From Ruminococcus albus 7 = DSM 20455 (GTDB taxonomy: Bacteria; Bacillota; Clostridia; Oscillospirales; Ruminococcaceae), in assembly GCF_000179635.2 (NCBI RefSeq), contig NC_014833.1, positions 1,800,001 through 1,832,000 on the forward strand: a DNA stretch of 32,000 nucleotides, given 5' to 3'. The position numbers were made by a program, and so were the translations under genes. Position 1 is the stretch's first letter. Every line of letters begins with the position of its first letter. The notes beneath the pieces were generated by a model that was given only the letters and a program-made list of their open reading frames with translations, was not told where the DNA came from and did no database searches. Positions 8,830-29,272 of this stretch are shown in pieces.

Positions 8830-9986
8830 CAGAGTTTTACTACTTTCGCTATGAACATGGCACAATCGTGTGAATCGAGCTGTGTTACATAGCGCTCGGT
8901 ATATGTTCCTACTGATGAATGTGAATAGCAGTCATACATATCCAGACCTCTGCCCGAGAATACCGGCAGACCGATATCGTAAAACTGCAGCGACATTTCA
9001 GCTCGCTTATCGCTCAGGTTGAAAAGACCTATAGCATAATCACCAGTAGAAAGTGGCTTTACCAGAGCAAAGACATTCTCAGGGTTGTTCCACTGTCTTA
9101 TGATGTAAGGACCTCTGCACTCAATGTCCTGATTTATTGAGATGATGTCCTTGTTGGTAAGTATCTCTTTAGCGGCAGCATCCATTTTTCTGATATCACA
9201 GCCTATCATAAGCGGAGAATTCATAATTGCCCACAGTGCAAAGTGAGTCTTGTACTCAATGTCTGTGCAGCCGCCAACAACACTTCCAAGCACCTCCGCA
9301 TTGTCACCCTTGCCGTGCATACCAACTACAAGCATATCCATATCGTTGTGACAGTATGATCCGCTGTATGGCTGATGTGAGACCTGTGAGTCAAATATAC
9401 TCTTTATACTGAACCAGTTGTCTTGTATATCTCCTGTAGAACGGAACATATGCGCACCCGAGGAGCGGATCCAGTCGAGAACATTATCGTTTCCCCAGTT
9501 GCAGGCGGAGAAGAGTATATCTCTTCCGCAGCTGCGAAGTGCCATGGACATTCTTCTGTAGAGCGTCGCACCGTCTGCCGACAGCGGTTTATAGCAGTAA
9601 TCATATTTCAGATAGTCAACTTCCCATTTTGCAAATGTTTCAGCATCAACAAATTCATGCTCAAAGCTTCCGGGAAAACCACCGCAGGTGTGAGTACCTG
9701 CACAGGAATACATACCGAATTTCAGTCCCTTTGAATGGATATAGTCAGCGAGAGCTTTCATGCCATTCGGGAATTTATTCTTATCAGGAACAAGTCTTCC
9801 GCTGCTGTCACGCTGACGTTCCGACCAGCTGTCATCAATGACTATGTACTCGTAGCCTGCATCTTTAAGACCGCTTTCAACAAAGAAATCAGCGGTAGTT
9901 CTGATAAGCTCATCGTTTATGTTCCAGCCGAATGTGTTCCATGAGTTCCAGCCCATAGGTGGTACTGCTGCAAGCGGAGTTTTCAT
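8829..9986 (-). CDS. Alpha-galactosidase, glycoside hydrolase family 27, no signal peptide
   Basis: Motifs PPMGWNSWNTFGWNINDE, YEYIVIDDSW and YLKYDYC are GH27 signatures. The start was placed at MKTPLAAVPP (ATG 9986) with AAAGGAAA upstream. Confidence 0.9.
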   Translation of the reverse strand: MKTPLAAVPPMGWNSWNTFGWNINDELIRTTADFFVESGLKDAGYEYIVIDDSWSERQRDSSGRLVPDKNKFPNGMKALADYIHSKGLKFGMYSCAGTHTCGGFPGSFEHEFVDAETFAKWEVDYLKYDYCYKPLSADGATLYRRMSMALRSCGRDILFSACNWGNDNVLDWIRSSGAHMFRSTGDIQDNWFSIKSIFDSQVSHQPYSGSYCHNDMDMLVVGMHGKGDNAEVLGSVVGGCTDIEYKTHFALWAIMNSPLMIGCDIRKMDAAAKEILTNKDIISINQDIECRGPYIIRQWNNPENVFALVKPLSTGDYAIGLFNLSDKRAEMSLQFYDIGLPVFSGRGLDMYDCYSHSSVGTYTERYVTQLDSHDCAMFIAKVVKL

Positions 9987-10098
9987 AATATTATTTCCTT
10001 TCATGTGATCGGTTACTGTATGCTTATTGTACATCATAAACATAGTCAGTTATTACATATAAGCTAATATATCGACTATGTATTATCGTTGTATGCTG

Positions 10099-10971
10099 TC
10101 ATTTTCTGCCACTGCGATTATGCAGTAATTGTTTTTTGCTCATTCTTCTGTATTCTATTGGTGATATACCCTCTGAGCGCTTGAATACTGTGCTGAAATA
10201 TCCTGGTTCACGAAAGCCGCACTTATCTGATATTTCGTTTATCGGCTCATCTGTTTCAAGCAGCAGATGCTTTGCTTCCAGTATCCTGCGCTTTTTTATG
10301 TACTTTTCTATTGAAGATCCCATAGCCTGACGGAATATCCTGCCAAGGTACTGGTGTGAAACACCGCTGAGTCCGACTAACTCTGATATCGGAAGGTCAC
10401 GGTTGAAATTATCCTCAATGTGATTTATAACTGGCAGGAGAATATCATTCTTAACGTTGCTGCCGGATTTTACTGCGTTTAGTATAAGGCTGTGCAGTTC
10501 AAGTATGATATCATAGCAAAGTCCTGAGCATCGGAATATACCGTTTATCCTGTCTGTCCGGAGAGTCAGCATTATCTTGTTGAACAGCTTGTTAAGTTCA
10601 GTGGTATCACAGCTTTTTAGCAATACCGGCTTGTCCAGCCCAAGCTCACCAAGAGTTCGTTCGATATCATACCCATCGAAAACAATCCAGCGAACAGTCC
10701 ATTTGGGTTGATAGGGATAGTATTCATGAGGGTAAGCCTTAGGCATGAAGATCAGATCGCCTTTGGATATCTCCACGCTCTGTTCATCATAGTTTATACA
10801 GCCCATACCGCTAATGCACCACAATATCTTGAACCAGCAGCCTTCTCCGTTCTCCTGATAATATCCCTGCCACTCGGTCCCGCCTATACCTCTGAGGCAC
10901 ACGGGCAGGTTTTCAGTCTTTTCAGCATAGGGATAGATATTGGATTCAACAGCTGCTGTCATGTTGCTCAC
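10099..10971 (-). CDS. AraC-family transcriptional regulator (N-terminal cupin sensor, C-terminal double HTH)
   Basis: The C-terminus LSGVSHQYLGRIFRQAMGSSIEKYIKKRRILEAKHLLLETDEPINEISDKCGFREPGYFSTVFKRSEGISPIEYR is a classic AraC HTH. The gene sits directly upstream of the GH27 gene on the same strand. Confidence 0.9.
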   Translation of the reverse strand: MSNMTAAVESNIYPYAEKTENLPVCLRGIGGTEWQGYYQENGEGCWFKILWCISGMGCINYDEQSVEISKGDLIFMPKAYPHEYYPYQPKWTVRWIVFDGYDIERTLGELGLDKPVLLKSCDTTELNKLFNKIMLTLRTDRINGIFRCSGLCYDIILELHSLILNAVKSGSNVKNDILLPVINHIEDNFNRDLPISELVGLSGVSHQYLGRIFRQAMGSSIEKYIKKRRILEAKHLLLETDEPINEISDKCGFREPGYFSTVFKRSEGISPIEYRRMSKKQLLHNRSGRK

Positions 10972-11080
10972 CTCACTGGTATGATAGCATATATTTGTTT
11001 TATTGTCAACTGCTGATTTTGCAATTTGAAATCTTCAAAGTGAAAATCCCACCGTAAACACGGGCGATTTTAAAAGCAAA

Positions 11081-11115
11081 TTAAATATTTGAAATAAAAT
11101 GATTCAAATATTTAA
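11081..11115. repeat. 13-bp perfect inverted repeat upstream of the AraC gene
   Basis: ttaaatatttgaa, a 9-nt spacer, then ttcaaatatttaa. The sequence is AT-only, so its significance is modest. Confidence 0.4.
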
Positions 11116-11154
11116 ACCGACAGCCTGACTTTATACTTCATAAAAAAAGTCTAC

Positions 11155-11182
11155 CTTTGCAGGTAGACTTTTAGATAGAACG
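11155..11182 (-). terminator. Rho-independent terminator of the GH9 gene
   Basis: 12-bp stem aaaagtctacct / aggtagactttt with loop ttgc. On the minus strand a 7-nt T-run follows. Confidence 0.7.
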
Positions 11183-11209
11183 ATATTGGACTTAGTATGA
11201 TCCTTTTGA

Positions 11210-13075
11210 TCATCTAATGGTTACTGTAACAGCGTGTTTGATAGACTCTGTGGATGTCCATTCACCGTTAACCTTAGCTGCGATAGCAACCTTGTAGGTC
11301 ATGCCGGGTGTAAGGTTCTTGGGGGTAACAAAGCTTCTTGAAGATGCAGGTATATAGGAATTCTGAACTCTCCACTTGCCTGCAAGATAAACAGCGATGC
11401 CGTAGTTTGTAGCGCCGTTTACAGGAGACCAAACAAACTGTACCTGATGATACTGCTTGTTGTAGTTGACAGCTGTAATTTCAGGATAAACTCCGGGATT
11501 ATTATTGTTGTTATTATTGTTATTGTTGTTATTGTTGTTGTTATTATTGCCGAAGGAATAATTCTTCTTGAATTCAGAAGCGCTGTTTACAATGCTTGCA
11601 GCGCCATCACCGTTGCTGCCGTAAAGATTTACAAGTGCTGCACAAGCAAGAGCGAAGCATCCGTTGTAATCAAGTGCACCTTCTGTCCAGCGGTAGCTGT
11701 CGGTAACTTCATTGAATGTACCGGAGGAATCAGGTCCGCCGATGAGATAACCATAGTTTACATAGGTAGCATTAGGATTGGAGGAAGCATCTCCGTTGCC
11801 TGGATTTGCAGCTCTGTGGTGTACCTTGGGTGACCATGATGAGCCGTAGCCTGTCAGGAAGCTCTTATTATAGGGATTGTTGCCGAGTATATAGTTCATC
11901 TGATACTTAGCACCCTTTGCAAGAGAAGAATTTGAATCGTTGCCGATAGATGCAAGTGCTTCCATCTGAACAGCACAGTTGTAACGTGTGCAGCCCCACT
12001 CCTGTTTGCAGGAATTGTAAGTACCCTCATTCAGACCGCCCATATTGTTTACTTCAAACTGAAGCTCCTTAGCGTATGCGGAATCACCGGTCTTTTTGTA
12101 CATCAGTGCAGCGTAACCTGACCATACCTTATCCCAGCTGTACAGATAATAATCGTAGTACTGATTATTGTAGCAGCCGTTGCCTGTAGGCTTGAAGGAA
12201 GGTTCACCGCGCTCACCCAGAATATACAGCCAGCCTTCTGCCATAGCCTGTTCATCCTGATACTGGGAATTTGTTGCATACATGGAACCCATACCTTCCA
12301 TATAGTTACCTGTATGCTGCGTACCGAACTTATAAAGAGCCTTAGCATACTTTGTACACTTTGCTGCATAGGATGCATCTGTATCCTTGAATGCTACCGC
12401 AGTACCTGCAAGGGCGCTTGCCATTTCCAGTACTATAACTGAGTTGTTGCCGGAATTTGTCAGCCAGTATGTAGGACGATCGCCGTTCTGCTTTTCGGGA
12501 GAACCCCAGTAGCTGTGGTCACCCTCATTTGATACCATATAGCATACAGCACCTACATCACCATTGTTATCCAGGAATGTAGTCTTCATCAGGTAATCTG
12601 CGCCGTTTCTCAGGATGTACAGCAGATGATCACGGCAGCCTGCCTTCTGATATGCACCGGGATTGAGATAATCCGAAAGAGCAAGGCTGTTCATACCAAA
12701 GCCTATGGTCAGGTTGAACTTAATATGGTCGCCTGCATCGTGATAACCACCGGAAACATCCACCTTACCGTCACCGTCAGGATCTACGATACTTCTTGCG
12801 CCGCCGAGATTGACAGCATTTGAAAGATTTGCCTGTGCATCACTTACGTGGCAATTGCCTCTCCATGCCAGAGGGTTGTCATCGACACCTGTACCGCACT
12901 GGTTGGAATCATAGAAATAAAGGGATAATGCCAATGCATCTGAATAATTGGCATCTCCTCCGGCTGCACTCGCCTTTATTGCGGGAACTGCCGTTGATAC
13001 CATTGCACCGGCTGATAATACCAGTGCAGTTGCGAATGCTGCGATCTTTGAAGATCTTCTTCCATGTTTTTTCAT
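11210..13075 (-). CDS. Secreted GH9 endoglucanase with a poly-Asn linker and C-terminal FN3-like domain
   Basis: Signal peptide MKKHGRRSSKIAAFATALVLSAGAMVSTAVPAIKASA. GH9 motifs are GGYHDAGDHIKFN and HHRAANP. N x17 is followed by an approximately 90-aa domain with FN3-like W..V.GATNY...L.PGMTYKV. No dockerin or recognisable CBM was seen. Confidence 0.93.
   Translation of the reverse strand: MKKHGRRSSKIAAFATALVLSAGAMVSTAVPAIKASAAGGDANYSDALALSLYFYDSNQCGTGVDDNPLAWRGNCHVSDAQANLSNAVNLGGARSIVDPDGDGKVDVSGGYHDAGDHIKFNLTIGFGMNSLALSDYLNPGAYQKAGCRDHLLYILRNGADYLMKTTFLDNNGDVGAVCYMVSNEGDHSYWGSPEKQNGDRPTYWLTNSGNNSVIVLEMASALAGTAVAFKDTDASYAAKCTKYAKALYKFGTQHTGNYMEGMGSMYATNSQYQDEQAMAEGWLYILGERGEPSFKPTGNGCYNNQYYDYYLYSWDKVWSGYAALMYKKTGDSAYAKELQFEVNNMGGLNEGTYNSCKQEWGCTRYNCAVQMEALASIGNDSNSSLAKGAKYQMNYILGNNPYNKSFLTGYGSSWSPKVHHRAANPGNGDASSNPNATYVNYGYLIGGPDSSGTFNEVTDSYRWTEGALDYNGCFALACAALVNLYGSNGDGAASIVNSASEFKKNYSFGNNNNNNNNNNNNNNNNNPGVYPEITAVNYNKQYHQVQFVWSPVNGATNYGIAVYLAGKWRVQNSYIPASSRSFVTPKNLTPGMTYKVAIAAKVNGEWTSTESIKHAVTVTIR
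11498..11548 (-). repeat. 17 consecutive Asn codons (mixed AAT/AAC) encoding the GH9 linker
   Basis: The plus strand reads att/gtt triplets without interruption for 51 nt. Confidence 0.95.
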
Positions 13076-13163
13076 CTCTTAACACTCCAATTCTGATAGT
13101 TTTAGACTATTCGGGCAAAAGTACACCTCTGCCTCGAATATAAATATTTACCACTATGAAAAC

Positions 13164-13192
13164 ATTATATCACACCATTTCGTTTTTGTCAA
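13164..13192 (-). promoter_or_regulatory. Consensus promoter of the GH9 gene
   Basis: The minus strand reads TTGACA, a 17-nt spacer, then TGaTATAAT, about 90 nt upstream of the ATG at 13075. Confidence 0.5.
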
Positions 13193-13272
13193 CATATTTA
13201 TTTAAATATATTTGTAAACTTTTGTTACATTGGCTAAGCGGAGCTGTCTTTTGCATGGATATATTAAGTATG

Positions 13273-13305
13273 AAAAACAGCCTGTCGGTCAGACAGACTG
13301 TTTTT
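13273..13305 (-). terminator. Terminator downstream of the GH25 gene
   Basis: Stem aaaaacagcctgtc / gacagactgttttt (one mismatch) with a 5-nt loop and a T-run on the minus strand. Confidence 0.55.
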
Positions 13306-13328
13306 CATGTATTTTTCCGAAGTTCTTT

Positions 13329-13955
13329 TCAGTGCTTTTTGTATCCGTTGAATCCGCCGTTTTTTATGATATCCGGATAGTCCACATAAGAGGTGTCCAT
13401 ATCTACATCGTTACTTATACCGTTGATTTTTCCCTTGCAGCTGTACTGCCACATACCGTAGCTTCCTCTATAAGTGCATCTGCTGCCGTATTCTGCTATC
13501 CACAGTGCATAGCGCTCGGCAACTTCTTTGGTGATATATTTTTTCAGAGGGGCGCTGCTGATGTACAGCCCTGTGAAATATCCTGCTTTTTCCAATTCTC
13601 CGCAGAAGCATTTTACCAGTGATGAGCAGAAAGCTTTCCCCTTATCGAACTGTGTTTGTTCTTCCAGGTCAAAATAGACAGGATATTCAAACTTTTTGTT
13701 TTTTATAACTTCAAGGCAGACACGGGCTTCTTCTTTTGCGTCGGTTTCGCTTTCAGCGTAGCTGAACCAGTAAACACCCACGTTCAGCCCTGCTTTTTTT
13801 GCATGGGAATAGTTCTTGTCAAAATACGGATCCTTCTGTGAGATATACTTTCCGTATCCGCCGCGGAGTATTACAAAGTCCACTCCTCCTGACTTTACTT
13901 TGTTAAAGTTGATCTCTCCCTGCCACTGAGAAACGTCAATGCCTTTTATATTCAT
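13329..13955 (-). CDS. GH25 muramidase (lysozyme), catalytic domain only
   Basis: The start was placed at MNIKGIDVSQWQG (ATG 13955, GAGGT RBS). GIDVSQWQGEINFNKVKSGGVDFVILRGGYG is the GH25 signature. There is no signal peptide and no wall-binding repeats. Confidence 0.88.
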   Translation of the reverse strand: MNIKGIDVSQWQGEINFNKVKSGGVDFVILRGGYGKYISQKDPYFDKNYSHAKKAGLNVGVYWFSYAESETDAKEEARVCLEVIKNKKFEYPVYFDLEEQTQFDKGKAFCSSLVKCFCGELEKAGYFTGLYISSAPLKKYITKEVAERYALWIAEYGSRCTYRGSYGMWQYSCKGKINGISNDVDMDTSYVDYPDIIKNGGFNGYKKH

Positions 13956-15477: not shown

Positions 15478-15813
15478 GGTAAGTATATCCCTCCTGAAAT
15501 AAATAAGTAACAATCATATAAATATACTAATATATATAATTATAATGCAGGAAATTTATTCCATAATTTTTGACGTATAAATATAAGGCTCAATGCCTTA
15601 ACTGTGCATAAAAATGGAAGTTCATATAATAGTAAGCTAATGTAATAATACCTAAATAAATGAGCAGTAATTTAGTGATAATAGACTTGGTAATACTGAC
15701 AAAATAATATAAGATCCATTTTTATTGGCTGTAGGGTCATCAGCTTTACAATTATACCATTAATATTTAAAAAAGTAAAGAAGATATCACAGTAATTTCA
15801 GAAAAATACCTAT

Positions 15814-16006
15814 CGAGGACAGCATCTATCCGTCAACACTAACAACGGATACCGAGCATCAAACAACCGATACCCGCCTTGAAAGAAACGTATCGAGCCG
15901 TCCGCCCGAGGACAGCATCTATCCGTCAACACGAACAACGGATACCGAGCATCAAACAACCGATACCCGCCTTGAAAGAAACGTATCTAGCCGTCCGCCC
16001 GAGAAC
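15814..16006. repeat. 93-bp tandem direct repeat, 2 full copies plus 7 nt of a third
   Basis: Copy 1 (15814-15906) and copy 2 (15907-15999) differ at 2 of 93 positions (T/G and G/T). The next 7 nt, cgagaac, restart the unit. The repeat is GC-richer than the surrounding AT-rich spacer. Confidence 0.9.
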
Positions 16007-16040
16007 AAAAAGACCGCAGGTGCGTCGGATGCACCTGCGG
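16004..16040 (-). terminator. Rho-independent terminator of the 96-aa gene
   Basis: 10-bp GC-rich stem ccgcaggtgc / gcacctgcgg with a 7-nt loop. On the minus strand tctttttgtt follows. Confidence 0.65.
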
Positions 16041-16102
16041 TACTTAAAGCTCTTTTTATCTCTCCAAAATATTTTTTTTACACACGCAATAATCGACTAA
16101 GG

Positions 16103-16393
16103 TCATATATCCCATTCTGTGCGGACAGTGTACCTTGCAGGGAAGCGAAGTTTTGATATCGCGTGCATTGAAGCGATGGTGCCGTTGTACTTGAAACTCA
16201 CTATCCTTACTTTACTTTCTTTTAAACTTTTGGTAGCAAGATCCCATGCACCGATCTCATCAAGTGCTTTCATGTATATTTCCGTAATTCCTTTTAACTC
16301 GTCTGATTTTTCCGCGTGAATACGCAGTTTCCCTCTCCTGAAGCAGTCAGGCTCTACGCTAGGATGCTTCATCATTAATTCGTTTCTGTTCAT
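16103..16393 (-). CDS. Hypothetical protein (96 aa)
   Basis: A good RBS (AGGAGA, 8-nt spacing) and its own terminator are present. I recognise no family. Confidence 0.6.
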   Translation of the reverse strand: MNRNELMMKHPSVEPDCFRRGKLRIHAEKSDELKGITEIYMKALDEIGAWDLATKSLKESKVRIVSFKYNGTIASMHAISKLRFPARYTVRTEWDI

Positions 16394-16756
16394 ATTATCA
16401 TCTCCTGTGAAACTATTTCTCCCTTTTCATTAGTCGCCGAATTATCAGTTCACAATTTTTACATTTTAACTTTTCGCTTCTCTCGAATGCATATTTTAAC
16501 ATAAAAAAACGACCTCGTCAAGAGTTATTAATTATTTTTGTTGATTTAAACAAATGTCAAGGTAATAGTACCTGCTTTTTAGGTACAATAAGCTTTTTTT
16601 ATGACAGGTAATCTCAAAAAATCCCGAAACAAATCCGTTTCAATAATAACAAGACGTTTTTATGGACAACTGTGATCATATGCGTCAAATATGATAGATA
16701 TTTACCAAAAATTGCGGGGTATTAGTTTTAAATTTTTTGATATTCATAAATAAACG

Positions 16757-16785
16757 TTGAATTTGCTCAAAATTTCTGTTAAAAT
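16757..16785 (+). promoter_or_regulatory. Candidate promoter of the EAL gene
   Basis: TTGAAT, a 17-nt spacer, then TGtTAAAAT (extended -10), about 47 nt upstream of the TTG start. Confidence 0.35.
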
Positions 16786-16832
16786 AATATAAATTAAAAT
16801 GTTCGATCCTATCATAAAAGGGGGGATTGTAG

Positions 16833-18914
16833 TTGGATAAAAAGGATATAGATGCTCTTTGTGCGCTTTTTAATGAATTATCAGAAGTGCATAATGAAGC
16901 TGAACTGGAAAGATCGGTGGAGAATAATATAGGTATTTTTGGTGATCATGATATCACCAAACTGAAAATAGCCCTTTATCTGCTTGGCGAAAGAATGCTC
17001 ACTGTCGATGCTGAAAACAGGGATGCATTAAGAGCGCGTCGTATTGCCTGCCTGACTGATGCGGAAAAAGCGGAGATGCAGAAGGTCGAGGAGATAATTG
17101 ATAAAAATCTACTTAAATACTATTTCCAGCCTATCATAAGTGCATCCACCGGCGATATATATTCATACGAAGCACTCATGCGTTCAGCTGCCGATCCGTC
17201 AATAACCCCTTTTCATATACTCAAATATGCAGGCCTTAATGACAGGCTTGATGATATCGAGAGAGCTACGTTTTTTAATATACTTAAGATAATCGAGAGC
17301 GATAAGGAAAAGTTCGGCGGAAAAACAGTATTCATAAATAGTATTCCCAATGTTTGTCTGGGCGAGGCTGATGTAGAGATGATATCAGCTATCCTTAGTA
17401 AATATTCGGATATGGTAGTGGTAGAACTTATAGAAAGCGCTGAAGCTGACGAAGCTCAACTCATAAGGCTGAAGGATACATTCAGCAGTATGGATATTAA
17501 AATAGCTGTCGATGATTATGGCACAGGATACTCAAATGTTAGCAATCTACTCAGGTACAAACCCGATTTTGTAAAGATCGACCGTTCGCTTATAAGCGAA
17601 ATCAACTGTGATTCCAATAAGAAGCATTTTGTACGTGATATCATAGAATTCTGCCACGATAATGATATACTTGCACTTGCAGAGGGCGTTGAGACCGATA
17701 TGGAAATGAAGACCCTGATAATAATGGGTATCGATCTCATCCAGGGTTATTATACTGCCAGACCTGCACCTGAACCGATCTCTGCAATACCTTATGAGAT
17801 AAGACAGGAGATAAGGCGTTTTCAGCAGCAGCGTCAGGACGGCGAGGAGACCCATGTATATAAGGTCGAGGGTACTGAACGTATATTGCTGGAAAAAATG
17901 AAAAAGCACGGATACAAATGTATACGAATACTGGCAACCGAAGATGACGGGGATATTTCCATTGTTGGCAATTCATCTCTTGAAACTCAGGTGCATATAG
18001 AGATCGACAGCGGATTCAAAGGCAGAGTCAATCTTGAAAGCGCCAATCTTTCCAATACCAAGAATCGTCCGTGCATTCAGCTGGCAGAGGACTGCGTGGT
18101 GGAGTTATCTGTCCTTGGTGATTGCAAGCTGCAAAACGGCGGTATCATCGTTCCCGAAAGCTCCGAACTGACGTTTACAGGACTTGGTTCGCTTAATATA
18201 AAGGTTCATGATCCTTCCTTCTATGGAATAGGTGCACATCTTGACGAACGTCATGGCAGGATCAGTTTCAGTGCGGATGTTACTTTCGTTATTGAAGCTT
18301 ACGGACAGTTCGGCACCTGTATCGGTTCGGGCCTTGGCGGTGAGATAGACATACACAGGGGTATTTTCAATATATCCATGAATTGTAATAACGGTGTAGC
18401 GATCGGTTCTATGACGGGTAATACTGATCTTGATATACGCTACTGCGGTATCGAGGTCAACTGCTACAGTCTTAAAGGTACTATTGTCGGCAGCCGTGAT
18501 GGTACTGCTGAGCTTATCCTGCACAGCATGAGCCTGAGGTGCAGCGTCAGCGGCAAGGAAACGGTCTGTGTAGGTTCTTTGCAGGGTCCTACAAATGTTA
18601 CGATCGAAAATTCCAACTTTGCCTCAGATGTCAGATCTGATAAAATGACAGTGTTTGGCTCGCTTTATAACAAGAGCATCGTCACGGTGCATAATATCTC
18701 CATGAATATTGAGGCAGGCGGTCAGGAGGCTTACATTATAGGCGGTCTGAACGGAAACACTGTATTTGATTGCACTGAAGCTGATATGAAGATAGTCCTG
18801 AATTCCGGGTTCAACAGTATTACTTCAGCACAGGGCGATGATCTTGTAGTCGGAGACGGAAGATATCAAATAAGAGTAAACGGTCAAAATTTCCGGCTTA
18901 TCCCCGAAAAGTGA
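16833..18914 (+). CDS. EAL-domain c-di-GMP phosphodiesterase fused to a C-terminal 28-residue-repeat (beta-solenoid-like) domain
   Basis: TTG start behind AAAGGGGGG. EAL signatures are YFQPI, YEALMR, FINS, ELIES, DDYGTGYS, KIDRS, EGVET and QGYY. The C-terminal approximately 250 aa consists of exact 28-aa repeats ending in hydrophobic-G-S/G. There is no TM segment and no signal peptide. Confidence 0.9.
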   Translation: MDKKDIDALCALFNELSEVHNEAELERSVENNIGIFGDHDITKLKIALYLLGERMLTVDAENRDALRARRIACLTDAEKAEMQKVEEIIDKNLLKYYFQPIISASTGDIYSYEALMRSAADPSITPFHILKYAGLNDRLDDIERATFFNILKIIESDKEKFGGKTVFINSIPNVCLGEADVEMISAILSKYSDMVVVELIESAEADEAQLIRLKDTFSSMDIKIAVDDYGTGYSNVSNLLRYKPDFVKIDRSLISEINCDSNKKHFVRDIIEFCHDNDILALAEGVETDMEMKTLIIMGIDLIQGYYTARPAPEPISAIPYEIRQEIRRFQQQRQDGEETHVYKVEGTERILLEKMKKHGYKCIRILATEDDGDISIVGNSSLETQVHIEIDSGFKGRVNLESANLSNTKNRPCIQLAEDCVVELSVLGDCKLQNGGIIVPESSELTFTGLGSLNIKVHDPSFYGIGAHLDERHGRISFSADVTFVIEAYGQFGTCIGSGLGGEIDIHRGIFNISMNCNNGVAIGSMTGNTDLDIRYCGIEVNCYSLKGTIVGSRDGTAELILHSMSLRCSVSGKETVCVGSLQGPTNVTIENSNFASDVRSDKMTVFGSLYNKSIVTVHNISMNIEAGGQEAYIIGGLNGNTVFDCTEADMKIVLNSGFNSITSAQGDDLVVGDGRYQIRVNGQNFRLIPEK

Positions 18915-18980: not shown

Positions 18981-19322
18981 ATGAGAACTAATTTTAATAT
19001 CGAAAACACAGATACGATAGATACATTGGCTTATAGGGAACAGACTAAGATGATGATATTGCAGATAGCTGATGGTATGGACTGGTCCGACATGGAAAGA
19101 CATTTCTCGCTGCTGCGTGAGAAACTGGATACCTATATATGGTATATAGATTCAAAACAGTATGAAGATAAGTATCCCGATGTAGAAAGGATAGAGTTAA
19201 GGGTGACATTTCTTTTCAAGGAGCCTGATGTATGTATAAAGCTGCTTGAAAAGGCAGGAGAGGTGCTTCACCGCGTTTTTGAAAACTCTGCATTGATAGT
19301 TGAATGCGGAGAAAGGGAATAA
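18981..19322 (+). CDS. Hypothetical small acidic protein (113 aa)
   Basis: RBS AAAGGAGAA is well placed. No family is confidently recognised. Confidence 0.65.
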   Translation: MRTNFNIENTDTIDTLAYREQTKMMILQIADGMDWSDMERHFSLLREKLDTYIWYIDSKQYEDKYPDVERIELRVTFLFKEPDVCIKLLEKAGEVLHRVFENSALIVECGERE

Positions 19323-20824: not shown

Positions 20825-23800
20825 GTGAGGACAGTGAGAAGTTTAAGAGGCAGTAATATCAAAAAACGTGTGTCGGCACTTTCTATGGCAGCGATGATAG
20901 TTATTGAACAGCTTGCATACATAGATCCGATGATAGCATATTCTGCCAGATCGGCATCTTCTAATGGATCGTCAGATTTTCCCGCAGTGACTTCAAGCGG
21001 TGTATCCGCATCACTTGAACATAAAGATCAGCTGGTAGATAACGGTGACGGTACTTACACATTTACTTCTGATATTACTTCAGCTTATTCATATCACGAT
21101 GAAAGCGGCGACAGACTTCGTTTTCAGTCGGATACTTATGAATTCGATAAGCCCGGCAAATATCTCATTGAGTTGTGGGGCGGTGACGGTGGTGACGGAA
21201 GTTCGTTGTTCCCACTGAGCTTTAAAGCAGGTTCAGGCGGTAAGGGCGGTTTCGTGTACGGTGTGCTTACTGTTACTCCTGAAGATGTGGATGCTAAGAA
21301 AAAGCTTTACTACGAAATAGGAAGTAAAGGACTTAGCCAGACAAGAAGTATCGCAGGCGGCGGTACAGGCGGTATCGGCGGCGGTGCTGGCGATATAGCT
21401 GTATTCTCGGTAGGTGCAGGCGGCGGCGGTGGCGGCGGCGCAGGCGCAGCCCTTCACACACTGCCCGGTATATTCGGCGGTGACGGACGTGCAAACGGCG
21501 GCGAAGGCGGAACATTCTTAAGCAGCCTTAGCGATACCCCGAATATCAAAGCATTTACAAGCGGTACTTATTACGCAGGTGAAAACGGCAAGACTTCGGG
21601 TACTAAGGCAGCCTATGTAGGACAGGGCGGTACAGACCGTCCCGGTGAACTGGTAGAAAGTTTCATAGGTTTCCTTGAAGCTTCATCCTATCCTAACGAC
21701 TGGCAGAAGTCATACCACCCAGATGCTGACAGAGGTATCGGCGGTGCAAGTAACTTCCGAGGCGGCGGCGGTTCTTCCTATGTAGGTGCTTACAGTTATT
21801 TCGAAGAGAACTCGAAAGGTTCTGATGATCTCTTTGTTGAGAGAGACGGAAACACAAACGCTGATGTGGGCGGTGCTGTAGTTATAAGATATCTTCCCGA
21901 TAGCAACAGCGATTACGCTTATCTTGATAACATCACAGTAAGCGGTGGAGTTTCAGAATATTTCGATATCGTATCAATGAACTGCACAAACAATAAGTAT
22001 AATGCTTCAAGCAAGAAAATGCAGTTATTGAATGTTTCATCTACAAAAACAGATAATAACTTCACAGTTAACGGTTCGGTAGCACCTGTACCCGATGGTC
22101 TTGACAAAGGTCAGGCGCAGGATACCCTTACAGTTTCAATAACTGTAAGACCGAAGAAAGCATTCTTCGGCGGACTTAACGTACCTGTATTCACAGGTGA
22201 CTTTGCTGTAAAGGACAGTGATAATTCAAAGAATTCGACTATATCTTATACCGATAATGTTACCCATGTAAACGTGCCTTACAATATCAGTATAACTGCT
22301 AAGAACTCAACAAAGCAGACAGGCGATACTGTATTAAAAGGTGATCTGTTTGAGCAGGAGATAGCTTATGAAGCAGATGATCCGATGCAGGATTTCATAA
22401 GCGGCATAACCTATAGAATAGATGATATTTCTGCAAATAGTTTCAGCGACACTATAACATCTGCTGATGTATCAAACGGCAGAAAAGCATTCTCGGTGAA
22501 AGCAACACTTGTTCCAAAGAGTGGTACTGCGGCACAAGTTGGTGAAGCAGGCAACCCGACAGTAACTAAGACAGTATATGTTCGATGCATAAGTGACAGT
22601 GTGCTGGATGTTGACGGATATGAGATCAATGCAGAAAAGTCATTGGCTTATAATGAAACCGATGATACTTACGATCTTACCGTTGATATGAACGTTGAGA
22701 ATCAGGATGCTAAATCATTCAGTATTATAGATCCTATTGAGAGTGAAAATGTACTTGATATTGTTTATAATGCAACCTCAAATCTCAGTAGTTCTAATGA
22801 TTATGTTAGTATAAGCAGAAATCAAGATAATAATAGCAATAATACTAAATATTCCGGTACGCTTCAACCCGGTATCTATTATGTTGAGGTATGGGGCGGT
22901 GATGGCGGAAGTGGATTCAATGATCCAACCAATAATCTTTCAAGTGCTGTTAGTAATAATACATATGGCGGTTATGGAGGAAAAGGTGGTTTCATTAGTG
23001 GATATGTCACTTTGGTTAGCGAGAAGCAGCTGGAAATTGTGTTAGGTCCCAAAGGAATTAAGGGTGATAGTTCAAATCCTGCAGGCAAAGGAGGTAAAGC
23101 AACATATGTAAATATTGGTGATGAGTCTGATGATATGACCTTTGTTGCAGGCGGAGGTGGAGGAGGTTCTACCTATTTGAAATATAGTGGAACCGATCAG
23201 AATAGTCATATGGGATACTCTGGTAATGATGGTTATAGAATTGGTGGAACCTCAGTTTATAAAGGTAGTTCTTCTAATGGAAATGATTATTACGATGTAA
23301 GTAAATATGATGGAGCAGATGCTATTTCTGTTAGTATAAGTACCGGTTTAAATCCTTATCGTAGAATTAGTAATTTCAATAATAATATTGCCAGTTATTT
23401 TGCTAAGGGTGGTTACAGCGAAATAGGTAGTGGTGTTCAAACTGAGATTGCTGATATAATGTATATTGACAATGGTGTGCATGATATTACAGTTGATCTT
23501 GGTCTATATGAATATGTTAATTATTTTAATAGTGGCATTGTTAGCAATTATTATATAAGCCAGTGGACAAACAAGAGTGGAGATCCAGAATACGTTTCTA
23601 ATGATGATGAGTACGAACGTGTTTCATCCTATAAAGGTACAACTAAGACTTCTATAGGAACAACAGGAGCGGTAAAAATCACCAGGCTTGGCGTACGCAC
23701 CAGACATAACTATGGTGGTACTGAAGTTGGAGTAGATACTTCTAATTCTGTTACACTTGCAAACATTGAAGAACAGATCAAAAATGATTATGCTAACGCT

Positions 23801-26518
23801 AATTGCTATGACAGTTTTACGTTAACAGGCAACTTTACAGATTATTTTGATCTGCAGGCTAATTCAAACTACTCAATCGTAGATAACATTGGATCACATC
23901 AGTTTGCTCTTTCAAATGCTAATGTACAATCAACAGCATCAACAACTACTAACGGGTATACTCAAAGTACTCTGCCGGGCTATACATTTAAAAAGTATGA
24001 TTATGTGTACAAGCTTAAAGGCAACGATTCAGTTACATTCAAACTAAAACCGATAAACGGCTTCTTAGGCGGTAACGATGTACCACTGCTAAACAGCGCA
24101 ACACTGACACATCATAACAATACTGTTGAAGATGATGATACAAAGTCTATCGTAGCTGACAACGCAACCGACTTCGCAAATGTCAGACTTGCATCCGAAA
24201 CACTGGCAGATGAAACCTACATAACTGTAGATACATCGCCAATATTCGTTGAATACGGCGGAACGCTTTCGGAAAGTGATTTCACTAATACAAAGAAGAC
24301 ATTTGAAAGCAGCAATCTTGCAGATGACTATGCACGGTTTACAGATTTTGGATATGAGCCGGATCTGAATAATGCAATAACAGCGGATACAAATGTTATT
24401 GTTACAGCAGGGCTTGAACCAACATCTGATAATGCAGCAAGAGCAACGGTGATCGATCCCGTAAGCAGGGCAGAGAGAAACTTCAGCGTACCTGTTTACG
24501 TGAAGTATCCTATCACAACTACCCTGACTAACGTTACAGCTGCTAAGGCTGACGGAACTCAATTCCCGTCAAGCGGTGAGTTCTTCCCCACATCGGTGGA
24601 TGACAGAGATCTGACGATCGTACTCAGTGCAGTTGACGGTTATGATCTGCCCGCTGCAGACGATGTTACAGTGACAGGTGCAGATGCATCTATCGAAAAG
24701 CGCGACGGTAATATTTACGTTACTATCCCGCGAAGCACTATAACAGGTGTGGTCACCATAACAGCATCAGGAGTGCAGGTAACACATAAGGTACATTATA
24801 TGTACGAGTACTACGATCCGCTGTCAGAGCAGATCTCGGTACAAAGTGTAGTTGATACGCATGAGTATAAAAACGGTGATTTCCTCGAGGGTCTGAATTT
24901 CCCGAACGTAACCGGTGCGTATCCCGTGGGATACGATGACTACGACTGGGATTTCGGACAGACCGAATACGATGATGACAGCGGCAAATACAAAATGGGT
25001 CAGGAGGATATCTACATAATAGGTACCTACGTTCCCATAACCTATAAGCTGGTGATAAACTACGTTCTAAAAGATACGGATAACCAAATTCTCGAAACGT
25101 ACACCTCACCCGACAGGACACAATACCATGAAGATACTGATACCTTTGATATAGCACTTACAAAGGGTGCAGACTTCTTTATAAAGTCCCCCGATATCAC
25201 GGGTTACGTAACAGATACCCCGTACGTTTCGGGCAAGGTAGATAATGCGTTTATCGATTCTCTTAATGAAACTATCACTATTGGTGAAAAGACATACAAG
25301 AGCAAGACGATCAATGTATATTATGAACCAAACCCTGATAACGTGATCGTACACTTCGTCAAGTGTGATGTCAGAGGAGTTCCGATCGAAAATGATGGCA
25401 ATACTATAACCAGAATCACAGAGGCAATTGGTGTTGGCGTTGACTATGATTTGGAATCGGAAATACTATCCAATATTACTAATGATGAATACGAGATAAT
25501 CAAACGTACAAGACAAACAGATACGGCCGAAGAAGAGGTGACTACCGTTTCGGGTACTATCACAGATGCAGATCAGATCGAAACATACTACGTTTACTAT
25601 AGAGCAAAACCCGGAAAAGTTACGGTTGAGTTCTACAAAGAGCGTGATGATGCATCACCTGACAAATCCAAGACTTGTGAGGTTGGCAGAGAGTATGGCT
25701 ATAACGCTGATCTTAAAGAATTTGATTCTCTCCCAAGAGCCGTAAAGGATAACTGCAGACTTGTTGGCTGGGAAACCGAAGACGGCAAGCTTATCGAGGA
25801 CGATACGATAGTCGAGGGCGAGGATGGTACTAGAATAAAGCTGTACGCTAAATGGGCATCAATGAAGGTTACTATACACGTTGATTATCGATACGCTGAG
25901 AATGTTGAGAATGAAACGATTCGCGGAACTGAGGCAGATACACCATTCACAAAAGAGTATCTCTACGGACAGAGCTATAAGATAGTATCTGGTCATATAC
26001 CTTATTACGAAGCTGTTCCCGGAGTTGTTGAGGGTATAGCCTTGGAAGATAAAACCGAAAAGGTATACTATAAAGACGGCTCAGGTGAGATAAGCATCAT
26101 AGTTGATGTTTACAGCGAGAGCAGTTTGAGTAATACCGCAAATGCTCACAAGCTTAAAGGCGGAACATTCGAGCTGTACAACTCGAGCGGTGAATGCATC
26201 AGCACCAAGCAGAACACTGATGGTTCTGTTACATGGACAAATGTTGAAGTTCGCCTGACAGACGGTGAAAAATACACAGTCAAGTGTACAGATCCACCCG
26301 TGGGATATGCTCCCGGTGAGATAGAGGTGACAGTTCAGGGTACAGAGACCTATGAAGAAATGTTCCTCGGCAAAACCAAATTCAGAATGCCTTTCGCAGG
26401 CAGCACACCGATGACAGGTTATACCGTCGTTGGTACATCCACAATGTTACTTGCTGTTTTCCTGCTGTTCCTTAATATGCGCAGTAAAGCAGAAGAAAAA
26501 AGAATAAAAAACAATTAG
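20825..26518 (+). CDS. Giant sortase-anchored surface/pilus-tip adhesin (two glycine-rich modules, MucBP/Listeria-Bacteroides-repeat-like domains, CnaB/SpaA-like domain, MPFAG sorting signal)
   Basis: 1897 aa with a GTG start. The GTG at 20834 is an equally good start behind AGAGGTGAGG. The N-terminus is basic then hydrophobic. WGGDGG...GGKGGF...GGGGGG modules occur twice. RLVGWETEDGKLIEDDTIVEGEDGTRIKLYAKW is a Listeria-Bacteroides-type repeat. The C-terminus has MPFAG, a hydrophobic helix and RSKAEEKRIK. Confidence 0.9.
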   Translation: MRTVRSLRGSNIKKRVSALSMAAMIVIEQLAYIDPMIAYSARSASSNGSSDFPAVTSSGVSASLEHKDQLVDNGDGTYTFTSDITSAYSYHDESGDRLRFQSDTYEFDKPGKYLIELWGGDGGDGSSLFPLSFKAGSGGKGGFVYGVLTVTPEDVDAKKKLYYEIGSKGLSQTRSIAGGGTGGIGGGAGDIAVFSVGAGGGGGGGAGAALHTLPGIFGGDGRANGGEGGTFLSSLSDTPNIKAFTSGTYYAGENGKTSGTKAAYVGQGGTDRPGELVESFIGFLEASSYPNDWQKSYHPDADRGIGGASNFRGGGGSSYVGAYSYFEENSKGSDDLFVERDGNTNADVGGAVVIRYLPDSNSDYAYLDNITVSGGVSEYFDIVSMNCTNNKYNASSKKMQLLNVSSTKTDNNFTVNGSVAPVPDGLDKGQAQDTLTVSITVRPKKAFFGGLNVPVFTGDFAVKDSDNSKNSTISYTDNVTHVNVPYNISITAKNSTKQTGDTVLKGDLFEQEIAYEADDPMQDFISGITYRIDDISANSFSDTITSADVSNGRKAFSVKATLVPKSGTAAQVGEAGNPTVTKTVYVRCISDSVLDVDGYEINAEKSLAYNETDDTYDLTVDMNVENQDAKSFSIIDPIESENVLDIVYNATSNLSSSNDYVSISRNQDNNSNNTKYSGTLQPGIYYVEVWGGDGGSGFNDPTNNLSSAVSNNTYGGYGGKGGFISGYVTLVSEKQLEIVLGPKGIKGDSSNPAGKGGKATYVNIGDESDDMTFVAGGGGGGSTYLKYSGTDQNSHMGYSGNDGYRIGGTSVYKGSSSNGNDYYDVSKYDGADAISVSISTGLNPYRRISNFNNNIASYFAKGGYSEIGSGVQTEIADIMYIDNGVHDITVDLGLYEYVNYFNSGIVSNYYISQWTNKSGDPEYVSNDDEYERVSSYKGTTKTSIGTTGAVKITRLGVRTRHNYGGTEVGVDTSNSVTLANIEEQIKNDYANANCYDSFTLTGNFTDYFDLQANSNYSIVDNIGSHQFALSNANVQSTASTTTNGYTQSTLPGYTFKKYDYVYKLKGNDSVTFKLKPINGFLGGNDVPLLNSATLTHHNNTVEDDDTKSIVADNATDFANVRLASETLADETYITVDTSPIFVEYGGTLSESDFTNTKKTFESSNLADDYARFTDFGYEPDLNNAITADTNVIVTAGLEPTSDNAARATVIDPVSRAERNFSVPVYVKYPITTTLTNVTAAKADGTQFPSSGEFFPTSVDDRDLTIVLSAVDGYDLPAADDVTVTGADASIEKRDGNIYVTIPRSTITGVVTITASGVQVTHKVHYMYEYYDPLSEQISVQSVVDTHEYKNGDFLEGLNFPNVTGAYPVGYDDYDWDFGQTEYDDDSGKYKMGQEDIYIIGTYVPITYKLVINYVLKDTDNQILETYTSPDRTQYHEDTDTFDIALTKGADFFIKSPDITGYVTDTPYVSGKVDNAFIDSLNETITIGEKTYKSKTINVYYEPNPDNVIVHFVKCDVRGVPIENDGNTITRITEAIGVGVDYDLESEILSNITNDEYEIIKRTRQTDTAEEEVTTVSGTITDADQIETYYVYYRAKPGKVTVEFYKERDDASPDKSKTCEVGREYGYNADLKEFDSLPRAVKDNCRLVGWETEDGKLIEDDTIVEGEDGTRIKLYAKWASMKVTIHVDYRYAENVENETIRGTEADTPFTKEYLYGQSYKIVSGHIPYYEAVPGVVEGIALEDKTEKVYYKDGSGEISIIVDVYSESSLSNTANAHKLKGGTFELYNSSGECISTKQNTDGSVTWTNVEVRLTDGEKYTVKCTDPPVGYAPGEIEVTVQGTETYEEMFLGKTKFRMPFAGSTPMTGYTVVGTSTMLLAVFLLFLNMRSKAEEKRIKNN

Positions 26519-26530
26519 GAGGTTCTTATT

Positions 26531-28351: not shown

Positions 28352-28396
28352 TTAATTAGTTAAAACAATGATAAGGTTCTCCGTGAACTGAACGCT

Positions 28397-28436
28397 ATAA
28401 GTGCCGCTGCTTTGTCGGCGGCACTTATAATTTTTC
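28397..28436 (+). terminator. Intra-operon hairpin (possible partial terminator) between pilin and sortase genes
   Basis: 11-bp stem ataagtgccgc / gcggcacttat with a 10-nt loop, then aa-ttttt. Confidence 0.45.
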
Positions 28437-28453
28437 AATAGGAGGAAAAACTG

Positions 28454-29272
28454 TTGGGCAAGAAGAAAAACAAAAAGAAACGATTAGGCATTATATTGCT
28501 CTTGCTCCTGTTCCTGATAGGATTGGTCTTGTTCCTTTACCCGTTTATCAGCAGGATCTTTATAAACAAAAAAGTCGATGAAAATATACAGAATCTCAAA
28601 GATGACCTGAACAGGATCATAAACGAATCTATTGAAAACGGAGATCTCAATATTGAAGACCTGCCTCTTGATGAAGAGGGCAGACCCGCACCGTATGAAA
28701 GGATAAAGTATGATATAGAGGAGGAGGAGAGTCAGCCTTACCTCGATGACCTTTATCAGTATATGCGCAGGCGCAACAGGGAACTCTTTGAGTCATCGCA
28801 GTCGCAGCTTGATTCGCAGGAATCATATAAGTACCCTGAATTCGATCTGAAGTCTTACGGTCTTAATACAGAAAGTATAGGTACTCTTGAAATATCAAGA
28901 CTGGGATTGAAGCTGCCTGTATTTCTGGGTGCAAACGATTATAACCTTACAGCGGGTTGTGGTCACCTGACTTATACAACTTATCCCATAGGCGGTTATA
29001 ACACAAATTGTGTTATTGCTGTGCACAGGGGACTTGGCGGATCTGATTTTCTGAGATATGTAGAAAAGCTTGAAAGCGGCGATGTGGTGCGTGTACAGAA
29101 TTACTGGTATACACTGGAATACAAAGTCGTAGATCATGTGATCGTTGATCCTGATGAAGTGGATTCCGTACTTATACAGCCGGGCAAGGATATGCTCACA
29201 CTTTATACCTGTCATCCCTATGGTATAAACAACCGAAGGTACCTGGTATACTGTGAGAGAGTTATAAAATAA
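28454..29272 (+). CDS. srtC: Class C (pilin-polymerising) sortase
   Basis: TTG start behind AGGAGGA. There is an N-terminal TM anchor. The catalytic His is in VIAVHRG, the Cys in TLYTCHPYG and the Arg in NRRYLVYCERV. Confidence 0.9.
   Translation: MGKKKNKKKRLGIILLLLLFLIGLVLFLYPFISRIFINKKVDENIQNLKDDLNRIINESIENGDLNIEDLPLDEEGRPAPYERIKYDIEEEESQPYLDDLYQYMRRRNRELFESSQSQLDSQESYKYPEFDLKSYGLNTESIGTLEISRLGLKLPVFLGANDYNLTAGCGHLTYTTYPIGGYNTNCVIAVHRGLGGSDFLRYVEKLESGDVVRVQNYWYTLEYKVVDHVIVDPDEVDSVLIQPGKDMLTLYTCHPYGINNRRYLVYCERVIK

Follow-up and report, generated by a model that had tools for sequence, protein, structure and literature searches.

A gene of Ruminococcus albus 7 raises the question of what a long repetitive domain, here called X, does behind an EAL domain, which is usually the C-terminal output domain of multidomain proteins. 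The gene lies in a window of 32,000 nucleotides, the whole stretch of DNA that we analysed, and a first-pass annotation made from the sequence had read it as a cytoplasmic, apparently active EAL protein with a tail of 28-residue repeats. We examined the EAL domain, the extent and family of X, its predicted fold and the readings of its function that these data favour or weaken.

The gene and its EAL domain

The open reading frame was found exactly where the first-pass annotation had placed it. A strong Shine–Dalgarno sequence lies 7 nt ahead of the TTG start codon, and a promoter candidate (TTGAAT and TAAAAT 17 nt apart, with a TG extension) lies 48 nt 5′ of the start codon. Because such sites are no more frequent in the region than expected from shuffled sequence, the promoter evidence is weak. 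An Rfam search near the gene returned no c-di-GMP riboswitch and no other Rfam element. The first part of the locus is laid out as follows.

16757..16785, + strand: sigma-70-like promoter candidate (consensus scan only)
16817..16825, + strand: Shine–Dalgarno sequence AAAGGGGGG (read from the sequence)
16833..18914, + strand: complete gene for EAL plus predicted beta-solenoid, 693 aa, TTG start, stop included
16833..17084, + strand: N-terminal helical region, aa 1–84 (AlphaFold2 helices; no Pfam match)
17085..17765, + strand: EAL domain, aa 85–311 (Pfam PF00563, E = 4.3e-46)
17793..17849, + strand: linker helix, aa 321–339 (AlphaFold2 helix, pLDDT ~90)

The protein thus runs from an N-terminal helical stretch through the EAL domain and the linker helix into X, an all-beta domain of ~350 aa. 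A cluster representative with 98.6% identity (P0002) carries only the source name 'EAL domain-containing protein [Ruminococcus sp.]'. The N-terminal region contains no known domain by Pfam search; AlphaFold2 places helices at residues 3–17, 22–31, 40–72 and 76–90 (pLDDT 63–84), the last of which leads into the EAL domain. The maximum Kyte–Doolittle hydropathy of 1.1 (19-residue window) and the acidic N terminus (MDKKDIDAL...) indicate that there is neither a transmembrane helix nor a signal peptide, as the first reading had it, and the protein looks soluble and cytoplasmic. PF00563 is the sole Pfam match in the protein, in agreement with the earlier statement that GGDEF, PAS and REC domains are absent.

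The EAL domain is well preserved. The PF00563 match scores 157.6 bits (curated threshold 31.3) and covers model positions 4–236 of 236. Every signature motif quoted from the sequence was recovered, and the catalytic and metal-binding set is complete at 12 of 12 positions (E113, R117, N169, E198, E201, D227, D228, K248, D250, E284, E287 and Q304). Loop 6 is intact, reading DDYGTGYSN at aa 227–235 where a DFG(T/A)GYSS-like sequence is expected. The EAL motifs line up with the active-site motifs of two EAL proteins of known structure, VcEAL (6IFQ) and PA3825. The AlphaFold2 model has the TIM-barrel-like EAL fold: in Foldseek, over 100 experimentally solved EAL chains match it (E down to ~5e-12; best target-normalised TM 0.88). 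Among 108 homologues that bear X, all 12 residues are invariant or nearly so, and we reject on this ground a degenerate EAL receptor of the LapD or FimX kind. The R. albus protein shares its EAL fold and complete catalytic and metal-binding set with active enzymes of PF00563 such as Vibrio cholerae VcEAL, Pseudomonas aeruginosa PA3825 and RocR, and Escherichia coli YahA/PdeL, none of which, to our knowledge, carries a C-terminal beta-solenoid. It departs from its relatives at residue 200, where the E-x-T-E motif of the family (Thr in 103 of 108 relatives) reads ELIES, a change to Ile that might lower the activity of this particular protein. Judged by its residues, the domain is apparently an active, metal-dependent phosphodiesterase that would convert c-di-GMP to linear 5′-pGpG.

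Domain X and its family

Behind the linker helix, the first-pass annotation had set apart a tail of exact 28-residue units. The repeats are real and make up part of a larger folded domain, which also takes in less regular coils at aa ~362–475.

17850..18902, + strand: domain X, aa ~340–690 (AlphaFold2 all-beta model; family of 296 representatives)
18069..18407, + strand: most conserved core of X, aa 413–525 (column conservation, 57-sequence MAFFT alignment)
18258..18845, + strand: seven 28-residue units, aa 476–671 (autocorrelation against shuffles; lag kept in homologues)
18846..18911, + strand: C-terminal non-repeat segment, aa 672–693 (AlphaFold2 strands 671–673 and 676–682)

BLOSUM62 autocorrelation over aa 476–671 peaks at lags 28, 56 and 84, with an observed value of 0.238; in 2,000 shuffles, the best value across all lags had a mean of −0.38 (sd 0.10) and a maximum of 0.05. 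The periodicity extends to the relatives, as would be expected of a structural repeat: 66 of 107 homologues have their strongest autocorrelation at lag 28, and 28 more have it at lags of 55–58 (~2 × 28). The family repeat follows the consensus d-I-x-I-x-x-[GAC]-x-h-x-[IL]-x-h-x-G-x-x-[GA]-V-[AG]-I-G-S-[LF]-x-G-[DN]-T, in which G22 is present in 111 of 119 repeats. Tandem Repeats Finder reported no tandem repeat in the DNA of the gene, and because the units have diverged at the DNA level, 'exact' holds for their length and not for their sequence. Unit 1 (476–503) is one residue out of the invariant-Gly register of units 2–6, and unit 7 (644–671) is degenerate.

Database searches returned no characterised family for the C-terminal region; on this point, as on the complete EAL signature and the conserved period, sequence analysis bore out the first reading. 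When 16 diverse members were searched against Pfam at E ≤ 10, no family was common to more than one of the 16 and none of those matched was a beta-helix family; NCBIfam gave nothing for the protein beyond EAL-related models, a PADLOC search for X gave no match, and PDB sequences were not matched by the single sequence, a 16-sequence domain profile or a 28-residue repeat profile. None of these resources thus describes this all-beta repetitive domain. Toastrack (DUF4097), a domain of signalling and stress proteins that is, like X, a repetitive beta domain, is unrelated by hhalign (probability 0.1%, 3 aligned columns). A Toastrack gene happens to sit ~3.5 kb from the X homologue in one locus (L003).

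An exhaustive HMMER search identified 296 cluster representatives with X, 95 of them at E < 1e-30, and the family reaches down to ~22–30% identity while keeping its length, register and invariant glycines. Word-indexed homology search was nearly blind to this family (one match by single sequence, two by profile), and a genome pattern scan that relied on poor patterns from a two-sequence alignment found only four Ruminococcus loci and under-samples the taxonomic range. The hosts are gut and rumen Clostridia (Ruminococcus, Lachnospiraceae and Oscillospiraceae). These data also bear on whether the tail could be non-functional, arising from local expansion of a repeat or as an artefact of annotation or fusion. 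All that speaks for this is the absence of X from domain databases; the 296 representatives with conserved length, register and glycines, the conservation seen in alignments, the confident AlphaFold2 model and the lack of a DNA-level repeat refute it, and we give it virtually no weight.

Architectures were inspected for the best 150 of the 296 matches, so that a non-EAL architecture is possible among the weaker ones. In 125 of the 151 listed proteins, EAL precedes X, with a median gap of 32 aa between the end of EAL and the start of X, and the remaining 26 are short (128–390 aa). Two apparently stand-alone X proteins, P0003 and P0258, proved to be products of frameshift-split genes, each with an EAL open reading frame directly upstream. 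Among the sufficiently complete proteins examined, X occurs only directly C-terminal to a catalytically intact EAL domain. What precedes the EAL domain varies, from nothing to LacI-type sugar-binding (Peripla_BP), GNAT, five or six transmembrane segments, or GGDEF; the GGDEF domain is usually degenerate, and its motif is missing in 63 of 72 long members. Because relatives with N-terminal transmembrane segments have none between EAL and X, X is placed in the cytoplasm. X is an optional add-on, since it is missing from close EAL relatives (55% and 48% identity). Taken together, X is an evolutionarily mobile yet EAL-dedicated accessory module.

The gene context of the examined loci yielded no identifiable partner. 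One neighbour recurs:

18981..19322, + strand: DUF6572 gene, 113 aa (Pfam PF20212, E = 2e-21), 66 nt past the EAL–X stop codon

A DUF6572 gene also lies directly downstream of EAL–X in the Ruminococcus loci L001 and L002, of which L001 differs in its upstream context. It is absent from L003, L004, L006 and L007, across which no shared neighbourhood was found, and so recurs only in three closely related Ruminococcus loci. The DUF6572 protein is a possible partner of EAL–X. The window as a whole is rich in glycoside hydrolases.

Predicted fold and conserved core of X

The full-length AlphaFold2 model has a pTM of only 0.61, leaving the geometry between EAL and X uncertain, and in Foldseek it matched EAL structures only; X was therefore modelled by itself. 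The C-terminal model is all-beta and confident (pLDDT 94.3, pTM 0.92), and its DSSP string assigns each unit one short strand (~6 residues) and one long strand segment (~16), to be set beside the three strands per turn, in coils of ~22–28 residues, of a regular right-handed beta-helix. This model is consistent with the beta-solenoid that had been proposed from the repeat period, with about a dozen predicted coils, of which the last six or seven would be regular 28-residue turns. Foldseek found no significant match to the X model in the PDB (best E 0.09, probability ≤ 0.38, TM ≤ 0.32, rmsd > 10 Å) or in BFVD (best E 0.02, TM ≤ 0.34). Its weak matches in BFVD and the PDB top 50 are nearly all right-handed beta-helices, from glycan enzymes to phage tailspikes and tail fibres. 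Because none of these matches is significant, assignment to the beta-helix class draws on the model and on non-significant matches, and X is best described as a predicted beta-solenoid of putative topology and handedness.

Right-handed beta-helices such as PL6 alginate lyases, GH28 polygalacturonases, AlgE4 and tailspikes are likewise all-beta and repetitive; their coils of ~28 residues have about three strand segments, an arrangement that X may share. They have no significant structural or sequence match to X (best E 0.02–0.09, TM ≤ 0.34, rmsd 10–15 Å), and they act on glycans as secreted or virion enzymes, whereas X lies in the cytoplasm as part of a signalling enzyme. Cthe_2159-type proteins are Clostridial and have Gly-rich repeats of a length similar to that of X, with alternating hydrophobic positions, and a resemblance to them had been suggested on first reading. 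No test supported this suggestion: X has no signal peptide or transmembrane segment, 16 members gave no Pfam match to the Cthe_2159 family at E ≤ 10, and no entry in the Foldseek PDB top 50 is described as such.

The weak matches nonetheless invite a reading of X as a sensor of glycans or other polymers, in which a pectate-lyase-like groove would bind a cytoplasmic oligo- or polysaccharide, be it cellodextrins, glycogen or a precursor of the cell wall, and so match c-di-GMP turnover to the carbohydrate supply of these fibre-degrading bacteria. Almost the entire PDB top list consists of right-handed beta-helix polysaccharide lyases, hydrolases, epimerases and tailspike depolymerases, and this reading would also suit the Ruminococcus, Lachnospiraceae and Oscillospiraceae hosts, the LacI-type sugar-binding domain at the N terminus of many X members and the abundance of glycoside hydrolases in the window. 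Against it, the structural matches are all non-significant (E ≥ 0.02, TM ≤ 0.34), Pfam matches to CASH, PbH1, Beta_helix and Cthe_2159 are missing even at E ≤ 10, X is cytoplasmic, and variable N-terminal domains already provide sensory input. We consider such a sensor unlikely.

Conservation is concentrated at aa 413–525 of X. The less regular coils at aa ~362–475 are the best-conserved part of X, whereas the later coils retain only their glycines. The core at aa 413–525, which is also marked by invariant columns in two further homologue alignments, contains the motifs PCI, GGIxVPESSxLT, GxGxLxI, YGIGND..HG, GIGSGxGG and GVGIG. The putative functional core of X is located ahead of the regular repeats on which attention had first settled, and aa 413–525 are a candidate binding or interface surface. 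The same stretch holds the conserved polar residues C414, E442, S443, S444, the D469 equivalent and H474, and many right-handed beta-helices are enzymes, so that X could have a second catalytic activity, such as processing of pGpG or of another substrate, with the Cys of PCI, the His of HG and the acidic or Ser residues of VPESS and GIGND as candidates. Each of these polar residues varies within the family, however, with substitutions at C414 and H474 in several members, and X has no similarity to any enzyme family; we regard a second activity as highly improbable.

At the other end of X, a G..(V)NG motif is conserved in the C-terminal segment (N683 is 82% conserved in the 57-sequence alignment), and aa 672–693 probably form a solenoid cap. 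Non-repeat elements appear to lie at both ends of the X model, as read from its secondary-structure string. Such ends would disfavour head-to-tail polymerisation and, to the extent that secondary structure can be used in this way, would weigh against the filament-forming module that had been proposed. A broader version of this idea has X as a module for oligomerisation or scaffolding, whose solenoids would associate side by side or end to end, building EAL dimers or arrays. Dimers are usually the active form of EAL domains, and some cytoplasmic beta-helices, among them bactofilins and the C-terminal domain of MinC, serve in self-association. The long rigid repeat region of X retains structural residues only, which would be expected of a spacer or scaffold. 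Yet the related EAL domains at 55% and 48% identity do without X, the apparent non-repeat ends would disfavour open-ended polymerisation, and the polar motifs that are conserved fall together in one region and not along a whole face. A scaffold thus seems to us a rather poor prospect.

A proposed role for X behind the EAL domain

Our preferred reading, which we put forward tentatively and at a little short of an even chance, is that the protein is an active cytoplasmic c-di-GMP phosphodiesterase with an accessory beta-solenoid that serves docking or regulation. The EAL domain would hydrolyse c-di-GMP to linear 5′-pGpG in a metal-dependent reaction, and a helix of ~19 residues would connect it to the ~350-residue solenoid. 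The conserved first half of X (PCI, GGIxVPESS, YGIGND..HG and GIGSGxGG) may be the binding site of a partner protein or a ligand, and binding would either site c-di-GMP hydrolysis beside a specific target, in local signalling or as a 'trigger phosphodiesterase', or control how active the EAL domain is. The variable 28-residue coils towards the C terminus would serve as a rigid spacer.

Known proteins offer partial precedents for such an arrangement. In Bacillus subtilis YkuI, the EAL domain is followed, through a helix, by a C-terminal PAS-like domain, a rare accessory behind EAL that is presumably regulatory; that accessory has a small alpha/beta PAS-like fold and is not known to be related in sequence to X, a repetitive beta domain of ~350 aa. 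The trigger phosphodiesterases PdeR and PdeL of Escherichia coli are active EAL proteins whose main output is a direct, c-di-GMP-gated macromolecular interaction. Their contacts are made by EAL or by an HTH at the N terminus, whereas EAL–X would use a dedicated C-terminal domain. A bolder proposal, which we rate as doubtful but worth stating, is that X is a solenoid for c-di-GMP signalling that is distinct at the level of fold, acting as an output or 'trigger' surface or as a ligand sensor, with target interaction coupled to c-di-GMP occupancy of, and hydrolysis by, the EAL domain. If this is true, the EAL–X proteins of gut and rumen Clostridia would form a new class of EAL effector enzymes.

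We found nothing relevant in the literature on fusions of EAL with a beta-helix or beta-solenoid, or on c-di-GMP in Ruminococcus or Lachnospiraceae, and c-di-GMP signalling is poorly explored in anaerobic gut and rumen Firmicutes. Defining X would add a domain family to signal-transduction censuses and improve the annotation of several hundred proteins that are named only 'EAL domain-containing protein'. A predicted solenoid that has no Foldseek neighbour despite a pLDDT of 94 is of separate interest for structural biology. For fibre-degrading Ruminococcus and Lachnospiraceae, EAL proteins with or without X offer a handle on the control of adhesion, pili and biofilms on plant material, and a confidently folded domain that is seen only behind intact EAL domains suggests that c-di-GMP turnover is regulated, localised or read out in a manner so far unrecognised.

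The EAL domain and its catalytic residues

The only Pfam domain in the 693-residue protein is EAL (PF00563; residues 85–311, E = 4.3e-46, 157.6 bits against a cut-off of 31.3), and NCBIfam returned sub-threshold EAL-containing equivalogs only, all within the EAL region. Every EAL motif quoted in the first-pass annotation is present and aligns with the active-site motifs of solved VcEAL (6IFQ) and PA3825. A Foldseek search with the full-length model matched only EAL structures (E ~ 5e-12, target-normalized TM up to 0.88). By every criterion of sequence and fold, the protein is a genuine EAL phosphodiesterase family member, and its active site, as read from the sequence, is intact. One reservation applies to this protein in particular: its E-x-T-E motif carries Ile at T200 (codon 17430–17432), as does a 98.6%-identical cluster representative; across 108 family members this position is Thr in 103 and non-Thr in 5, with Ile in 3, this protein included. 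Because the 12 catalytic residues of EAL vary hardly or not at all among the 108 EAL domains compared that bear the C-terminal all-β domain X (residues ~340–690), degenerate EAL receptors are ruled out and the family can be assigned, on sequence grounds, to the phosphodiesterases. The maximum Kyte–Doolittle mean (1.1 over any 19-residue window) and an acidic N terminus indicate a soluble, cytoplasmic protein, as the annotation had proposed.

Repeats and predicted fold of domain X

We found no match to X in NCBIfam or PADLOC, none in Pfam for the protein itself or for 16 diverse relatives at E ≤ 10, and none among PDB sequences with a single sequence, a domain profile or a profile of 62 individual repeats. 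X is thus outside every described family. Resemblance to Cthe_2159-type β-helices, raised in the first-pass annotation, found no support in Pfam (16 relatives, E ≤ 10) or in the top 50 Foldseek PDB matches of X. Kinship with Toastrack (DUF4097) was rejected after a negative profile comparison with one Toastrack protein. In the homologue P0083, residues 644–705 of the X region gave a sub-threshold Pfam match to the glycine-rich region of phage tail-fibre adhesin Gp38 (E = 9e-5, 22.9 bits against a cut-off of 25), which probably reflects Gly-rich composition.

The 28-residue periodicity reported for residues 476–671 is real: BLOSUM62 autocorrelation peaks at lags 28, 56 and 84, with an observed value of 0.238 against a shuffle best-over-all-lags mean of −0.38 (s.d. 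0.10, maximum 0.05; 2000 shuffles). It is also kept in homologues, with lag 28 best in 66 of 107 and lags 55–58 (~2 × 28) best in a further 28. The units had been called exact, which holds for their length and fails for their sequence; no tandem repeat was found at the DNA level, which marks the units as old and diverged. Judged by the invariant glycine, unit 1 sits one residue off the register of units 2–6; unit 7 is degenerate. The consensus reads d-I-x-I-x-x-[GAC]-x-h-x-[IL]-x-h-x-G-x-x-[GA]-V-[AG]-I-G-S-[LF]-x-G-[DN]-T, and G22 is present in 111 of 119 units. Conservation across X peaks at residues 413–525 (motifs PCI, GGIxVPESSxLT, GxGxLxI, YGIGND..HG, GIGSGxGG and GVGIG), and later coils keep only glycines. 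That X serves as an oligomerization scaffold seems unlikely to us.

AlphaFold2 modelled the full-length protein from a 27-sequence alignment with a mean pLDDT of 88 (95–97 in the X region) and a pTM of only 0.61, which leaves the orientation of the two domains uncertain; X alone (16 sequences) reached a pLDDT of 94.3 and a pTM of 0.92. The model is all-β from residue ~362, with non-repeat elements at both ends, and each 28-residue unit comprises a short strand (~6 residues) and a long strand segment (~16). Foldseek found no neighbour of X alone at E ≤ 1e-3 (PDB: best E = 0.09, TM ≤ 0.32, rmsd > 10 Å; BFVD: best E = 0.02, TM ≤ 0.34). The β-solenoid originally predicted is plausible from the model, because these sub-significance matches are almost all right-handed parallel β-helices (PL6 lyases, GH28 polygalacturonases, AlgE4, phage tailspikes and tail fibres); the confident all-β model favours it too, whereas the geometry is unlike that of any solved family, and the likeness is one of general class only. 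We consider it improbable that X senses a glycan or polymer, and very improbable that it carries a second catalytic activity.

Family size, architectures and hosts

The one relative that a word-indexed search returned, P0001, shares this architecture and is 45% identical over 557 aa. When a profile built from two X sequences was run exhaustively through HMMER (E ≤ 1e-3), it retrieved 296 cluster representatives (clustering at 50% identity), of which 95 had E below 1e-30. In 125 of the 151 sequences listed, a median of 32 residues separates the end of EAL from X, which is C-terminal there with a median of 13 residues beyond it; the other 26, without EAL, are all short (128–390 aa). In both X-only ORFs examined, P0003 and P0258, an EAL ORF lies immediately upstream and overlaps, so these are frameshift-split genes and not stand-alone X proteins. 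X is shown to be a conserved, confidently folded repetitive β domain dedicated to EAL C termini, and we give almost no credence to its being an artefact. The regions ahead of EAL–X (EAL with X directly C-terminal) vary widely:

~85 helical residues only, then EAL–X (the protein studied here)
Peripla_BP (LacI-type), then EAL–X
Peripla_BP, GGDEF, then EAL–X
GNAT, with or without GGDEF, then EAL–X
five or six transmembrane segments, GGDEF, then EAL–X

The [GAS]G[DE]EF motif is absent in 63 of the 72 members longer than 800 aa, most of which place a cytoplasmic, sugar-binding LacI-type Peripla_BP domain and a signature-less GGDEF before EAL–X (P0012, P0029, P0030, P0047, P0136 and others), an arrangement that suggests sugar-responsive phosphodiesterases. 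Close EAL relatives without X exist, so X is optional: P0186 (55% identical; locus L008, 2219–3304) stands alone as a protein of 361 aa, and its flanking genes encode 7TMR-DISM GGDEF and HD-GYP proteins; P0196, of 289 aa and 48% identical, is a separate ORF after a Peripla_BP–GGDEF ORF (locus L009, 297–3023) and has 33 member sequences. Cluster members are named only 'EAL domain-containing protein' and come from Ruminococcus sp., Lachnospiraceae bacterium and Oscillospiraceae bacterium, most from metagenomes only; a genome scan found EAL–X at four Ruminococcus loci.

Genomic setting and a proposed role for X

The gene starts with TTG, 7 nt after a strong Shine–Dalgarno sequence, AAAGGGGGG, and no riboswitch was detected nearby. 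The ~1.3-kb region upstream (15514–16832) is low-coding and unusually long.

16833–18914 (+), EAL–X gene, ORF of 693 codons
16757–16785, weak σ70-like site upstream of the gene (consensus scan)
15879–16100 (+), small upstream ORF without Pfam match
16103–16393 (−), small upstream ORF without Pfam match
16013–16041 (−), strong terminator-like hairpin in the upstream region
18981–19322 (+), DUF6572 gene directly downstream; likewise at Ruminococcus loci L001 (8537–8875) and L002 (9061–9438)

Upstream, on the opposite strand, are GH9, GH25, metallo-β-lactamase-fold and PAP2 proteins; downstream are DUF6572, an aldo-keto reductase, a 1897-aa glycine-rich protein, an LPXTG pilin and a sortase. Only DUF6572 recurs beside EAL–X (here, L001 and L002), with 57% identity between the DUF6572 proteins here and at L001 despite a different upstream context there; other loci differ completely. 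According to a 2025 paper (PMC12558993), T7SS immunity proteins have DUF6572 as their conserved C-terminal part, and in Streptococcus suis this part binds the D1 ATPase of EssC. A putative adhesin/pilus cluster at 20825–29272 (+) encodes the 1897-aa protein (ALK/LTK-type glycine-rich domain), a 606-aa SpaA-fold LPXTG-anchored protein and the sortase, plausibly a c-di-GMP-controlled surface structure, although no riboswitch was detected. The GH9 cellulase (11210–13075, −; weak fn3 match) and a tRNA gene (29415–29498, +) both fit a cellulolytic Ruminococcus chromosome. At L003, the homologue from R. flavefaciens YL228 is followed (9256–13531) by σ70 region-4, PASTA-domain, HAAS-domain and Toastrack (DUF4097) proteins, in what looks like an envelope-stress-type module; the Toastrack domain there has no kinship with X.

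We tentatively propose, at somewhat under even odds, that the conserved N-terminal half of X would act as a docking or regulatory surface, linking the hydrolysis of c-di-GMP to a partner or ligand, as in local signalling or with a trigger phosphodiesterase, and that the variable coils may be a spacer. We rank this role first by confidence, followed by glycan sensor, scaffold, second catalysis and artefact.

Our literature search found nothing linking EAL to a β-helix or β-solenoid, nor anything in this respect on c-di-GMP enzymes of Ruminococcus or Lachnospiraceae. EAL–X by itself resolves no long-standing question; it joins a known enzyme to an undescribed, family-specific accessory domain that has no structural neighbour, and is noteworthy and readily testable for a specialist in c-di-GMP or protein domains.
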